A DNA stretch of 43,678 nucleotides from a virus (taxonomy: Duplodnaviria; Heunggongvirae; Uroviricota; Caudoviricetes). The stretch covers positions 1-43,678 of IMG/VR virus record IMGVR_UViG_2531839668_000011. The stretch is one strand, 5' to 3'. Made by a program: the position numbers. This document shows, one piece after another, positions 33,001-42,000 of the stretch; the stretch's first letter is position 1, and the number at the start of each line of letters is the position of its first letter.

Positions 33001-36000
33001 GATATGTCGACCAGGAATGACACAGGAGCAGGCGACGATATTAATCACTGAAGCATTCTGGGCTTTGAAAGAGCGCCCGAACATCGATGTTCAGCGTGTC
33101 ACAGATGAAGGTGGCGCGGTTGATCAGCGAGCGCTTGGCGTTAATCGAGTGAAGATATTCGAACGCTGGAAGGCTATCGACACCAGGGATAAGCGTGAAA
33201 AGTTCACGGCGCTAGTGCCTGCGATTATGGAGGCTATCCGGATTAGTGATTTCAGGTTGTATCGTGAGATCAGTGATGGAAAAAGTATTACGTACATGAT
33301 CGCCGGGTTAAATAAAGAATATGGCGATGTGGTGGAATCCGGACTGCTTTTTGCAGATCCTGCCGTTGTAGATCGTGAAACTGACGAACTTATAGAAAAA
33401 GCAATTGCTTTCAAGCTTGCGTATCGACAGCAATACCAACAAAAAGCTGGATGGAATTATGAGTCTTCTTTTTGCTGAACGCCCACTGGTTATAAACACG
33501 CAGCTGGCAATGAAAATTGGCTTAAACGAAGCCATTGTTTTGCAACAACTGCACTACTGGTTGAGAGATACCAACTCCGGCATGGAATGTGATGGTGTTC
33601 GCTGGATTTATAACACAACGGAACAATGGCTGGAACAGTTCCCATTCTGGTCAGAGTCAACGTTAAAGCGCGCGTTTGCAAGTCTGAAAACGCTGGGGCT
33701 TTTGCGTTGTGAAAAGCTCAATAAATCAAAGCGCGATATGACCAATTTCTACACGATCAACTACGGGAGCGAGCTTTTAGATGGTGGCAAATTGAGCGAA
33801 TCCATCGGTTTAAAATGCGCCGCTCCATCAGGTCAAAATGACACGATGGAAGAGGTCAAAATGAAACGCTCCATTGGTTCAAAACGACTCAATGTCATCG
33901 GGTCAAAATGGCCTGATGATCTTACAGAGAATACAACAGAGATTACTACAGAGAATAAAAAGACTTCTCGTCCGGAAGCTTCGCAACCGGACCCGCAGAC
34001 GGTTGAACAGGATTTTTTAACCCGACACCCTGACGCGGTTGTGTTCAGTGCGAAAAAACGCCAGTGGGGCAGCCAGGAAGATTTGGCGTGTGCGCAGTGG
34101 ATCTGGGGGCGAATCGTGAGTCTTTACGAGCAGGCCGCCAGCGATGATGGCGAGATTTCGCGACCGAAAGAACCCAACTGGACCGCATGGGCCAACGACG
34201 TGCGCACAATGCGGATGCTGGATGGCAGAACTCACAGACAAATTTGTGAAATGTTTGGTCGGGTGCAGCGGGATCCATTCTGGGTAAAAAATATCATGAG
34301 TCCGTCAAAGCTTCGCGAAAAATGGGATGAACTGGTTATCCGCCTGGGGCGTTCGTCTGTACAGCGTTGTGTGAATCATATTTCTGAGCCGGATACCGAA
34401 ATTCCGCCGGGCTTCAGGGGGTAAGTGTTAATTTCTGGTCATGAGGTAATTTTCAGGAGGGCTTGTGGCAAAAGTTTTTACACAAGAAGAGCGGGAAAAA
34501 ATTAAAGGGCAGGTTGTTGAACTCGTACGCCGGAGTGGGCGTGAGACGTTACGGCAACTGGAAGTCAAGACAGGTGCGACAAGATATCTGATGAGCGTTC
34601 TCGCAAGAGAGCTGGTTGCCAGCGGCGATGTATACAACTCTGGTTACGGGTTATTCCCGTCTGAACAGGCGCGTAAGGACTGGCAAAATGCCCGTAAAAA
34701 GCTCTCAAGGGCAAAGCTGAAGGAACCATCTGCGGTTGATCCGGACCTTATCTGGTCATTACCTGACGGAGAAATACGTCGCTACGACAGGCGTCAGAAC
34801 ATAATCTGTCGCGAGTGCCGGAAGAGTGAAGTTATGCAGCGCATACTAGCATTCTATCAGGGAAATGCTCGATATTTATTGAAGTGATGAGATTAAAGTT
34901 TATTAGTTCAGATATTGATTGGCTCTTTTGTGGAGTAGGGTAGAGTTAGTGTGTTTGTCTGCTTGGTGCCAGCAGCGGATATGTTTAACAACAGAAAGCA
35001 TTCAGCATGGTTAGTGGATTTGCAAAGTGGATTAGGATTTGAGAAACTTTGATGAAGTTGTAAAGCTTGTTTCTATAAAAATAGAAATTTAACTAATAGT
35101 TAAACACACCTCCAGCTTCATTGAAAAGGATTATTAGCTATGATTGATCCACTTATTAGAAACTTACAGAGTGATATTGCACTACTCCAGCTTTATATCG
35201 CGCAACGCAAACAGGCAGGCTTTCATGACATGGAAAGAATAATTGAGTCATTGACCATCTTTATGTTTCGCGCGCTGAAAATGGGTGAACTGGTAAACAT
35301 GAATCAGATTAAAGTTAATTTTCCCGCCATTGATTTAGCTGATAATAAAAACATGATAGCAGTTCAAGTTACTACGAATGCAAGTCCAGCAAAAATTAAA
35401 AAAACTATCGAATCTTTTGAGAAAATAAATGAAATAGGAGAGAGTCTGAAAGATAAATACTCTACTTTATATATTTTTGGTTTTTGTAAAGCCTCAAGAT
35501 ACCTAACTCCAAGTTATTGTAAAATAATCGACCCCAGCTATTTCGTGAATGAACTTTGCGATAAAGCAGATGAAGATATGGTCCAGGATATGATTGACGC
35601 CATTCGACGCCATCATGATTATACATCATTACATCCATGGAGTGATAAAGATTCACTCGAAATTATACTCAATATTATTAATCGCAATGCAATAAAACAT
35701 CGGATGAGTTGCGAAGGCAGTCTGTCTGATATGCTCACTGGTTTAAAAGAAATTAATGAAGTAATTACAAAAGGAACAATTCAACGTAAGCAACGTTCAA
35801 AATCGATATCTGACTTCAAAGATCAAAGCATGGTGAAATTTATGAGAGGTGTAATGGATGATTTGTCTGTTATTCAAGCCATAGTGAACAAATCTAAAGT
35901 TAACCAAGGTGATATGGTTTATATAAGCCATGAAGATATGATTAATATTGATAAATTAAAAGCTAAAATAGCAAGTGATTCATCAGAGATTGCAAGGCTA

Positions 36001-39000: not shown

Positions 39001-42000
39001 AAGGGGTTGGACTATGTAGTTGCTTTAAATAAAGTTCCGCTACAATTTACCAAAGATTGCATTAATAACCCCAAAAAGAAACATCGTCTGCGTCGAAATA
39101 AAGTAGAGTATGAGCAACTCTCATTGTTTGGTGATGTTGAGGCTGAGCAAGATATTACATGGCGAGTCATAGCTGAGCCTTTTTTATCCGAAGAGGGCGA
39201 TGGTGAATTAGAGTCCACACTGCCTCGTTGGGAGGTAGCTCTTGTTGGATTTAATACTTATGGTGCTCAGATTAGTATAGTTTCTCATCAATCTACAGCA
39301 TCGATGCCGCTTATGCCTCTTGATTATAACACACTCCCTGACGAAGCGGAGATTAATAAGGTGCCTCTTCGTCGGCGTACGAAGGATAAAGATTTGGATG
39401 TGAGCAGTGATGGAACATCAGGTGAATAACTTCACTGAGTATCGGGGTGATAAGCTCAAACTAGCGAGAATGGCTGTTGGGCTTTCTTGTGAAGAGTTAG
39501 CCGAAAAAATTGGCAAGACAAAGCAATTCGTTAGCAAACTGGAGAAGGGGTGCAGGCCATCGGAGCAATGTCTTGAGTTAATATCTTCAGCGCTTATGAT
39601 TAAGTCCAGTTTTCTTTTTACTGAACGAAAATACGCTCTGGAAAGTGATGTCTGCCATTTTCGGAGTAAGAAGTCCAGGACTCAAACGCTGACTAATAGT
39701 GTATTGGCCAGGGCTGAGATTCTTAATATTATAATTTCTGCTGTTGAAGGTGAAATCGAATTTCCTGACGTTAACATACCGGAGCACCCAGGGGCTGAAT
39801 TACTTACTCCGAATGATATTGAGCGAGTGGCAGAAGATTGTCGCCGTGCCTGGAATTTAGGTCTTGGCCCTATATCATCAATGGTTAAATTGGCGGAGAG
39901 TTTAGGGGTAATCGTTGCGCATGTTACGGGAGTCGATGATCGTGTTGATGCTTTTACTGTTCACAATAACAGGCCTGTTATCATCAGGAACAATGTTAAA
40001 AAAAGCATATGTAGATTTCGCTCTGATTTAGGTCATGAATTAGGGCATTTAGTAATGCATGAGGGCATAACGACAGGTGATAAACTTACGGAATCACAAG
40101 CCGATCACTTTTCGAGCGCCTTATTAGTTCCCAGGTTATCTTTCATTAAAGAATTTCCACGAATACGAGGTAAGCAATTCGACTGGAATGCTCTGGTTGA
40201 ATTTAAACTTAGATGGAAAATCAGCCTTAAAATGTGTATTTATCGAGCCAGCGCATTAGGCTTATTGACCCAGGAACAGGCAAGAACTGGCTATATGCAT
40301 CTTAATTCCAGAGGGTATACGAGAGTTGAACCTGGTGATGAACTTTTGCGCCCTGAAGAACCCGGTATGCTGGCCGAGGCGATTGAAATGCTGGATGATG
40401 CAACCTGGCTAAGAATTCTTATGAAAACTGGCTTGAGCCAAGATTTAATTCGTGAGTTGTTCTCCATCAACAGACCTATTACAAATCCAAGAAATATTTT
40501 CCAGATTGTTTGAGTATACCCGCTTCGGCGGGTTTTTTGTTTTTATTTTCAACGTGTTTGAAGTTTTGGACGGTGCCAGAATAGAATCAAAAATACTTAA
40601 GTAGCGCGCAGGGAGAAGAGGGATGGACCCCGAACAGGGGGAGTGCTATTTATCTGGAAGGATTCTGTTGATGAAAATCGAAGAATTACGTGAAATTTTT
40701 AGTGAGGATGGCCTCTATACTGTGCGCGTTGAGAATGGCGCTATTGTCAGCCACTGCCGTATTAAATGTTTACAGTCTCAACAAAGGAAGAGTGGAGCTG
40801 CGTTAATTCATTTGGTGGATGGGCTTGTGACGGATGGTTTTATTTTGCGTGCAAATGAATTTGTCACATCGTTGCCGTCTCTGAAAGAAGCTGGGATTAA
40901 GGCTGGTTTTTCTGCTTTTGAAGATGAGTGAATTCATCTACAATTCAGCGCAGGGCTGAACCCCTGTTGAGTAACACTGTGCCACCGGAGAAAGCCGATG
41001 GCGCAAAATTCCAGACAACACAATTCTGATAATTCAGCCGTCTTTGCCAGCAGGCACGGGCGGCGTTCTCATGCATTCAAATCTGACTGGTTCCAGCATG
41101 ATCCATGTACTGAAGAGCAGGCAGAGTGGCTAATTCAGAACTACCGCAGACGTGGTTACGAGTTTCAGAAAGACCTCAGCTTCGACTTCCGACACTGGAT
41201 AATCTCAGTCAGACTGCCTTACTCTGAACGCCCACCGCGTCCGTCCCGCACATTCCAGCAGCGTATCTGGAGGTAACGTGCGGGTATTACTTCGACCTGT
41301 TCTGGTAACTCAGTAAATATAGTGCAGAGTTCACCCTGTCAAACGGTTTCTTTTGCAGGAAAGGAATATGAGTTAAAGGTCATTGATGAAAAAACGCCTA
41401 TTCTTTTTCAGTGGTTTGAACCTAATCCTGAACGATATAAGAAAGATGAGGTTCCAATAGTTAATACTAAGCAGCATCCCTATTTAGATAATGTCACAAA
41501 TGCGGCAAGGATAGAGAGTGATCGTATGATAGGTATTTTTGTTGATGGCGATTTTTCAGTCAACCAAAAGACTGCTTTTTCAAAATTGGAACGAGATTTT
41601 GAAAATGTAATGATAATCTATCGGGAAGATGTTGACTTCAGTATGTATGACAGAAAACTATCAGATATTTATCATGATATTATATGTGAACAAAGGTTAC
41701 GAACTGAAGACAAAAGAGATGAATACTTGTTGAATCTGTTAGAGAAAGAGCTGAGGGAAATTTCAAAGGCGCAGGATTCTTTGATTTCTATGTATGCAAA
41801 GAAAAGAAATCATGCATGGTTTGATTTCTTCAGAAATTTAGCCTTATTAAAAGCAGGAGAGATATTCAGGTGCACATATAATACAAAGAATCACGGTATT
41901 TCATTCGGGGAGGGGTGTATCTATCTTGATATGGATATGATACTTACAGGTAAGCTTGGTACAATATATGCTCCTGATGGAATTTCAATGCATGTGGATC

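Follow-up and report, generated by a model that had tools for sequence, protein, structure and literature searches.

The stretch of viral DNA analysed here (IMG/VR record IMGVR_UViG_2531839668_000011, 43,678 nucleotides, hereafter the window) contains a ~5.6-kb interval of cargo genes that is 100% identical to several complete Escherichia coli chromosomes, e.g., that of O157:H16 strain 98-3133. According to the reference annotation, the window spans two tandem lambdoid prophages of the DicA/DicB (Qin) type, the cargo interval lying in the second of them (prophage 2). The left end of prophage 2 is a frameshifted integrase (window ~26757-27782), followed by an exonuclease, dicB, DicF, ydfABC, dicA, dicC, ydaT, an O-like replication gene and a DUF977 gene (34465-34887), after which the cargo begins. 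An initial annotation of the sequence had listed SMEK-like, methyltransferase, membrane-protein, hok and helix-turn-helix (HTH)-peptidase genes in this interval. All of them exist as intact open reading frames (ORFs) with the expected family matches, together with one that had been overlooked, a 216-aa ORF (38779-39429, rmrT) that is the partner of the HTH-peptidase gene in a RosmerTA pair. These genes are not one block: the interval consists of three independent modules in two slots, slot A from DUF977 to hok and slot B from hok to rem, split by a conserved hok/sok cassette. Its landmarks are, from left to right:

34465..34887, plus strand: DUF977/Ren-like gene, conserved left anchor of slot A (Pfam DUF977, 2e-30; PHROG 142 'Ren-like exclusion protein', 3e-46; BLAST boundaries)
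34867..37944, no strand: island A, the AT-rich slot A cargo, ~3.1 kb with 32% GC (GC profile; megablast, conserved sequence resuming at query position 3046)
37945..38269, no strand: non-coding stretch of 325 bp 5' of hok, ~90% identical in ~1,660 E. coli genomes (megablast)
38270..38702, plus strand: hok/mok/sok type I toxin-antitoxin (TA) cassette, between the slots (hokD coding sequence 38458-38613; mok frame from 38401; Rfam sok match 38289-38463)
38703..40517, plus strand: RosmerTA cassette, the slot B cargo (promoter-like site, rmrT, rmrA and its own terminator copy)
40671..40931, plus strand: rem-like backbone gene (~80% DNA identity to K-12 Qin rem; PHROG 340; annotation)
40998..41276, plus strand: 92-aa backbone gene, located 5' of DUF968 in complete relatives (PHROG 1212, 3.5e-37)
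41307..41321, no strand: deletion breakpoint, with the DUF968-to-tail region missing (BLAST against the E. coli C7 prophage; annotation)

Two cargo slots flanking a hok/sok cassette

The dividing cassette is a hok/sok locus: HokD matched the Pfam HOK_GEF family (2.9e-23, 81.6 bits), and sok matched the full Rfam model RF01794 (positions 1-157) with 114 bits against a gathering score of 59. It belongs to the prophage backbone, since prophage 1 has the same cassette (96.5% identical). BLAST comparison of the two prophages within the window revealed homology solely at three islands, namely DUF977 (34362-34866, 94%), the hok cassette (38270-38701, 96.5%) and a 90-aa gene (40977-41307, 82%; listed above with 92 aa), in agreement with the earlier remark that homology to prophage 1 returns only at short islands (90-aa gene, hok cassette). 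On the left side of slot A, the homology to other prophages breaks off at 34866, 21 nt 5' of the DUF977 stop codon. On the right side, it is back at 37945 in ~1,660 genomes and, in the prophages used for comparison (prophage 1 and loci L022-L024), at ~38262-38270; the non-coding stretch 37945-38269 is absent from prophage 1 and had no Rfam match.

The region 35000-37900 has a GC (guanine plus cytosine) content of 32.3%, the lowest of all 2.9-kb segments in the 43.7 kb (mean 46.5%, standard deviation 5.2%), whereas 37901-40540 has 43.5%, near the value of the left flank of prophage 2 (46.9%), and the hok gene 52%. As strong AT-richness is confined to 35000-37900, the description of the 5.6 kb as conspicuously AT-rich holds for ~3 kb (34867-37944, 32% GC) and has to be dropped for the remainder, whose composition is normal for prophage 2. 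Low GC is, moreover, not peculiar to the cargo interval, as the effector regions of the window are likewise AT-rich (35-40% GC).

We searched 5,426 complete E. coli genomes by megablast, counting as carriers those with at least 80% of a given segment. The whole 5.6-kb interval was found in 23 of them, the left part (34900-38250, island A) in 151 and the right part (38710-40970, RosmerTA) in 232; ~128 genomes thus have island A without RosmerTA and ~209 RosmerTA without island A. The gene content is therefore far from universal, an outcome in favour of the initial annotation on a check that it had itself proposed, and the parts assort independently, contrary to its picture of one contiguous block. 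A single event that brought in the 5.6 kb as a low-GC block replacing the nin region (DUF968, rusA and Q) of prophage 2 appears highly improbable. Such an event would agree with the GC content of the interval taken as a whole (37.7% against 46.9% in the left flank), with the absence of Q, rusA and DUF968 downstream, and with the 23 genomes that have the full length at 100% identity. Nevertheless, it is at odds with the independent carriage of the two parts, with a backbone cassette in mid-interval and with the ordinary composition of the right half, and it is contradicted by two prophages from other strains.

The first of these is the serU prophage of E. coli C7. Over window 26700-38703, a span that takes in island A, it shows 98.7% identity; it lacks RosmerTA and continues after the 92-aa gene with DUF968, RusA, Q, tRNAs and lysis genes. 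In the second, from strain UPEC-774U, the RosmerTA genes are followed by DUF968, RusA and an antiterminator, indicating that in complete prophages the cassette supplements the nin region instead of taking its place. Since the C7 relative retains DUF968-rusA-Q next to the same island, the nin and late genes of prophage 2 were lost by a separate deletion, the cargo being no substitute for them. In the window, 41307 is the last position with homology to complete relatives, and nleB2 starts at 41322; the deletion joined the beginning of DUF968 to the effector locus. Downstream of the cargo, the 100%-identical reference genome has the rem-like gene, the 92-aa gene, nleB2, an nleC fragment, nleH and nleF, and then chromosomal yodB, so that no Q, lysis or structural genes follow, as the initial annotation had it.

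The contents of the two slots vary among E. coli prophages. For slot A, we surveyed a ranked, evenly spaced sample of matches to the anchor genes and found at least 10 alternative cargoes between DUF977 and hokD: AbiH with a 463-aa partner, likewise on the minus strand; DUF4209; DUF5677; QueH; a Sll1717-type P-loop ATPase; an alpha/beta hydrolase (in O157:H7); an ATP-binding and STAS-like pair; another class I methyltransferase; the paa adhesin; and runs of small nin-like ORFs (DUF4014, DUF7167, DUF551). In K-12 Qin, the type II TA system relBE lies directly 5' of hokD. Most E. coli prophages of this type have nothing in slot B; when occupied, it holds the present RosmerTA cassette, a 94%-identical variant, other ImmA/HTH pairs, or insertion sequence elements. 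RosmerTA-type cassettes occupy it in ~230 genomes and also in the temperate phage Tritos, which has a different RmrTA-like pair (a 204-aa protein and an ImmA/IrrE protein) in the same place. At the DNA level, among the sequenced phages of the GenBank phage collection, only the backbone and the Tritos pair were detected, and neither island A nor the exact RosmerTA cassette. The alternative slot A cargoes and the RosmerTA-type cassettes of slot B thus lend support to the core idea of the initial annotation, that of a variable slot gathering defence and accessory genes.

The closest known counterpart, the K-12 Qin locus, shares the backbone and the slot, with hokD followed by rem, a 92-aa gene, ydfU and Q. 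It differs in having relBE in place of the SMEK and membrane-protein/methyltransferase island, in lacking RosmerTA, and in keeping only the hok coding sequence and terminator (equivalent to window 38444-38701), without the mok/sok part (E. coli TG1, L090, 4417-5170). As in lambdoid morons and the P2/P4 defence hotspots (Rousset et al. 2022), cargo of deviating composition separates genes that are neighbours in related phages and comes with a promoter-like site and a terminator of its own, and many alternative cargoes, including abortive-infection (Abi) and TA genes, are found at the same position. The location is different from that of the P2/P4 hotspots: it lies on the two sides of hokD in DicA/Qin-type lambdoid prophages, with the ren-like DUF977 at one end and rem/DUF968 at the other. 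We did not find this slot described as a hotspot in the searchable literature, which is weak evidence given its incomplete coverage.

Altogether, the interval is best explained, and we think with good probability, as the ren-nin segment in the early-right operon of a defective lambdoid prophage (Qin/DicA type), with two cargo slots split by hok/sok. Slot B would carry a moron-like RosmerTA cassette, and slot A a foreign AT-rich 3.1-kb island with two separable modules. The ratio of non-synonymous to synonymous substitution rates (dN/dS, calculated pairwise against diverged homologues) was 0.09-0.28 for all five cargo genes, which are real genes under purifying selection. The anatomy of the locus, its slot boundaries and insertion site, the presence/absence polymorphism, the family assignments and this selection could be established directly, while the functional roles proposed below are in every case inferred.

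The RosmerTA cassette of slot B

The cassette and its borders comprise the following features:

38683..38702, plus strand: left copy of an exact direct repeat of 20 nt, ACCCGCTTCGGCGGGTTTTT, corresponding to the hok terminator hairpin (repeat search; terminator scan; single copy at empty sites)
38779..39429, plus strand: rmrT, predicted toxin, 216 aa, no transmembrane (TM) segment (PADLOC RmrT PDLC03929, 4.6e-25 over positions 5-195 of 198; PHROG 5786, 8e-85; dN/dS 0.18)
39410..40513, plus strand: rmrA, predicted antitoxin, 367 aa (PADLOC RmrA PDLC03943, 6.2e-105 over positions 2-342 of 370; Pfam HTH_3 and Peptidase_M78)
40518..40537, plus strand: right copy of the 20-nt repeat/terminator, ACCCGCTTCGGCGGGTTTTT (repeat search; terminator scan)

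The RosmerTA unit, of 1,835 bp, is bounded by the exact 20-nt repeat, of which empty sites in related prophages have one copy, and it is a precise insertion at the hok terminator. The promoter-like sequence TTGACA-N17-AAATAT (38714-38742), with a perfect -35 hexamer, matches the consensus 60 nt 5' of rmrT. The cassette thus has the attributes of a moron: it is an insert between genes that are adjacent elsewhere, with a terminator-like hairpin at each end and a promoter-like consensus site. To its right, the last 450 bp of the right part (40518-40970) are backbone, with 97% identity to cargo-free prophages of O157:H7 and O145.

The two genes are co-directional and overlap by 20 nt. RmrA combines an XRE-type HTH_3 domain (residues 17-63) with a Peptidase_M78 (M78/ImmA Zn-peptidase) domain (177-282) that contains the motif HELGH (209-213). 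This architecture, together with the adjacent gene of a recognised RmrT family, places the pair in RosmerTA by sequence. RmrT itself had no Pfam domain, even in permissive scans, no TM segment, and no relative in the PDB by sequence search. RosmerTA are anti-phage TA systems (Millman et al. 2022; Ernits et al. 2023) in which diverse RmrT toxins pair with ImmA-type RmrA, and a phage-borne example has been validated (Ernits et al. 2023); that an rmrA deletion was unobtainable, as reported in the RosmerTA literature, fits toxicity. The present pair resembles them in being an operon of two overlapping genes, the toxin gene leading, in the XRE HTH plus M78/ImmA antitoxin with an HExxH motif, and in its full-length PADLOC matches. 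As in Gordonia phage Kita, it is (pro)phage-borne, but the toxin of Kita is membrane-depolarising whereas the RmrT found here has no predicted TM segment.

By homology, we regard this pair as a probable TA abortive-infection defence, as part of the overall explanation given above. RmrA would hold RmrT silent, by repressing or neutralising it, until a phage cue inactivates RmrA, and the freed RmrT would then arrest the infected cell. The HTH domain of RmrA suggests autoregulation and its M78 protease a role in sensing or processing, by analogy with ImmA/ImmR. Several observations temper this assignment. RmrA scored 155.9 bits against the NCBIfam spr1629 equivalog NF052239, whose cut-off is 335, making it a relative and not an equivalog; it has just 29% identity (E 2e-35) with the verified RmrA of E. 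coli OLC-716, and no similarity between its RmrT partner and the OLC-716 toxin was detectable. In addition, phage defence has been demonstrated only for other RosmerTA subtypes (those of E. coli OLC-716 and Gordonia phage Kita).

Alternatively, rmrT-rmrA might be a regulatory or addiction module of the prophage without a role in defence, either an ImmR/ImmA-like fused repressor-protease acting on a neighbouring gene or a plain prophage-stabilising TA system. The PHROGs label of the RmrA family ('transcriptional regulator'), the M78/ImmA domain, named for an anti-repressor protease, and the vicinity of hok/sok, a classical stabilisation cassette, all agree with it. Even so, we find this option improbable: a DicA/DicC immunity region belonging to prophage 2 itself lies 6 kb upstream, the PADLOC profiles matched along the full length of both proteins are specific to RosmerTA, and defence has been shown for two RosmerTA systems with other toxins. 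Furthermore, prophages that are otherwise nearly identical differ in whether the cassette occupies its precise site; it is, therefore, dispensable for prophage regulation, and addiction could in any case coexist with defence.

The AT-rich island A of slot A

Island A moves as a unit in the 151 genomes that carry it; we found neither flanking repeats nor transposase remnants around it. It encodes three proteins:

35140..36039, plus strand: stand-alone SMEK-domain protein, 299 aa (N-terminal SMEK domain, predicted to be restriction-endonuclease-like, and conserved helical C-terminal domain)
36354..37007, minus strand: class I S-adenosylmethionine-dependent methyltransferase of small-molecule type, 217 aa, second operon gene (Pfam Methyltransf_12/23 and TehB; motif I DFGCGKL at residue 41; dN/dS 0.10-0.26)
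37020..37715, minus strand: all-helical membrane protein with ~4 TM segments, 231 aa, first operon gene, 12 nt 5' of the methyltransferase (hydropathy; dN/dS ~0.09-0.16)

The SMEK_N assignment is clear (79.9 bits against a cut-off of 27 for Pfam PF21941, and 105.1 against 30 for NCBIfam NF033859), and the N-domain also matched the PADLOC model of a restriction endonuclease associated with prokaryotic Argonaute (1.4e-20, model positions 9-143 of 463). The 299-aa architecture is kept across Gammaproteobacteria and Betaproteobacteria (108 cluster representatives), with invariant residues including E36, D65, Q76, T78 and K85 and a conserved C-terminal half, for which permissive Pfam scans returned nothing meaningful. 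Elsewhere, the gene occurs alone in varied accessory contexts: beside SLATT_5 in Pseudomonas, beside Abi_alpha in Vibrio and, in Enterobacter, beside SymE or within integrase/resolvase islands with an AAA_13 ATPase. SMEK has been described in the literature as a nuclease effector domain, namely in SPARDA (SMEK-APAZ) and in the LmuA protein of short Lamassu. The strong SMEK_N match links the present protein to these systems, from which it differs as a stand-alone 299-aa protein with its own helical C-terminal domain and no fixed neighbour. Unlike SPARDA, it has neither an APAZ domain nor an Argonaute, its neighbours being DUF977 and the methyltransferase; unlike short Lamassu, it matched no Lamassu model in PADLOC, and there is no SMC-like (LmuB) ORF in the region. 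We found no description of a stand-alone SMEK protein as a defence gene in the searchable literature. This protein would be a nuclease effector whose activity is controlled by the helical C-terminal domain, acting as a regulator or sensor.

The other two genes form an operon. Among its Pfam and NCBIfam matches, the methyltransferase had no DNA-methyltransferase family, reading of its translation by eye revealed no (D/N/S)PP(Y/F) motif, and a sequence search of the PDB found no relative. The membrane protein had no match in Pfam (permissive scan included), NCBIfam, PADLOC or PHROG, and its AlphaFold2 model, confidently predicted as all-helical (predicted local distance difference test 94.7, predicted template modelling score 0.88), had no informative neighbour in the PDB. 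Only 54 representative relatives (E <= 1e-3) were found among 1.84 billion proteins. A profile search of genome contigs with the membrane-protein alignment retrieved five loci, of which three are short contigs of unrelated metagenome-assembled or other genomes (L031-L033); these are 90-100% identical to the E. coli gene, carry the labels Candidatus Scatousia, Haemophilus and Streptomyces, and most likely reflect contamination or mis-binning.

The two genes are a conserved unit: at identities between 100% and 30%, they lie side by side (5-12 nt apart or overlapping) in every case with enough downstream sequence, two contigs being too short to tell. The pair occurs at the end of P2-like prophages, after gpD-ogr (Providencia, Enterobacter), in a P4-like mobilisable island, in a metagenomic contig at 37% identity, directly after AbiEi/AbiEii at 30% identity, and in 27 IMG/VR viral contigs, and it is AT-rich in every host (29-33% GC). 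In the P4-like island (L009/L010, ~2800-15900), the pair, 59% identical, is found among a 613-aa reverse transcriptase, an Hcp-like gene, a relaxase, and an M78 peptidase plus Beta_protein pair, surroundings that look like a dense defence-type neighbourhood. The recurrence of a conserved two-gene unit in accessory positions of unrelated mobile elements suggests, tentatively, a phage-exclusion or host-benefit module, and we put forward the exclusion role as one possibility only.

Island A could instead have nothing to do with immunity, the pair being a lysogenic-conversion or stress-resistance module (TehA/TehB-like detoxification, or envelope lipid or sugar methylation) and SMEK an unrelated passenger. 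The Pfam TehB match of the methyltransferase, although weak, exceeds the gathering score (24.4 against 20.4 bits) and is accompanied by matches to other small-molecule methyltransferases. The order in tehA-tehB is also a membrane protein followed by a methyltransferase. Moreover, in the P2-like and L053 prophages the pair lies at the prophage end beside att or the integrase, the usual place of conversion genes, in L053 beside a glycosyltransferase. We nonetheless judge this interpretation rather unlikely, although a TehAB-like or envelope-modifying role competes seriously with exclusion as the function of the pair. Against the TehB equivalogs of NCBIfam, the protein scored 28-29 bits, far below the cut-offs of 218-303; its partner, with ~4 TM segments, has no similarity to TehA (TDT/SLAC1-family) or to any transporter family; and the pair resides on mobile elements, not in the core genome. 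We therefore do not place it in TehAB. Its position next to AbiEi/AbiEii and among the defence-type genes of the P4-like island, and the AbiH or relBE genes that the same slot bears in other prophages, argue in the same direction, and a modification of the receptor would still count as phage exclusion.

A further question is whether the three genes make up a single system in which the membrane protein senses, the methyltransferase modifies and the nuclease is the effector, in the convergent layout known from many restriction-modification pairs. The trio does occur in the same convergent arrangement, at 84-91% protein identity, on at least two other phage backbones, namely L053, between tail-fibre assembly genes and a GT4 glycosyltransferase plus integrase, and L055, after DnaB and ORF6N; in complete E. 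coli genomes, island A is always whole. However, the pair is found without SMEK in P2-like prophages, in the P4-like island, beside AbiE and in the viral contigs L054, L056, L057 and L059; conversely, SMEK proteins of 45-82% identity occur in many contexts where the pair is absent. The similar dS of the three genes in the trio variants fits recent co-transfer of one DNA segment, and the methyltransferase translation, read by eye, lacks DNA-methyltransferase motifs. A single three-gene system thus seems quite unlikely, and we read the trio as the recent co-transfer of one island rather than as obligate coupling. Restriction-modification by SMEK and the methyltransferase was also considered and set aside as the main interpretation, given the lack of a DNA-methyltransferase motif and the separate occurrence of the two modules.

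A defence role of the island A cargo must also be set against other points. PADLOC has no model for the membrane protein, and its match to the SMEK protein is limited to the N-domain. The resemblance of the methyltransferase to TehB and similar small-molecule enzymes could indicate a role outside defence. Finally, AT-rich islands in E. coli are often transcriptionally silenced.

The exchange points and their prophage surroundings

RosmerTA, hok/sok and variable moron or defence slots in temperate phages are known kinds of element. On the other hand, neither the stand-alone SMEK protein nor the membrane-protein/methyltransferase pair is present as a system in PADLOC v2, and the accessions of the cargo proteins were not found in the supplements of DefensePredictor. 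The membrane-protein/methyltransferase operon could conceivably be a previously undescribed two-gene anti-phage or exclusion system, possibly with SMEK, and the DUF977-hokD-rem interval a defence hotspot comparable to those of P2/P4, a proposal that we make with reserve. If true, the interval could be mined for further systems.

The comparisons above map two exchange points, one on each side of hokD, in a family of prophages that is very common in E. coli and includes K-12 Qin and many prophages of enterohaemorrhagic and enteropathogenic E. coli. Slot B takes RosmerTA-type cassettes at a precise 20-nt site. Several slot A cargoes are recognised abortive-infection or TA genes, which makes this slot a practical place to seek new immunity genes. 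Two candidates can be nominated, both under purifying selection and recurring on unrelated mobile elements: the stand-alone SMEK protein and the membrane-protein/methyltransferase pair. The locus also illustrates how a "grounded" prophage remnant in attaching-and-effacing E. coli retains intact defence-type cargo beside type III effector genes.

Type III secretion effector genes are located at the right ends of both prophages (window 23325-26248 and 41322-43678), of the DUF1076/NleG family in prophage 1 and comprising nleB2, a truncated nleC and nleH in prophage 2. Prophage 1 is integrated beside tRNA-Ser/mtfA and is organised, in order, into a repressor region, replication genes, nin-like genes, DUF968, rusA, a Q-like gene, tRNAs, lysis genes, terminase, head, partial tail and NleG-type effectors. 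Its equivalent of slot A (window 5026-5679) contains another methyltransferase, annotated as dTDP-6-deoxy-L-hexose 3-O-methyltransferase, and small DUF4014-type ORFs. At window 10221-10735, 3' of its DNA methyltransferase, it has three tRNA genes followed by a full-length match to the small RNA (sRNA) STnc100 (132 bits). The two tandem prophages also share a 1.14-kb direct repeat, 99% identical, in the ydfA-ydfC region (window 1-1140 and 30984-32123), each copy of which bears the DicF sRNA on the minus strand (175-226 and 31158-31209). This repeat is a ready substrate for recombination between the two prophages.

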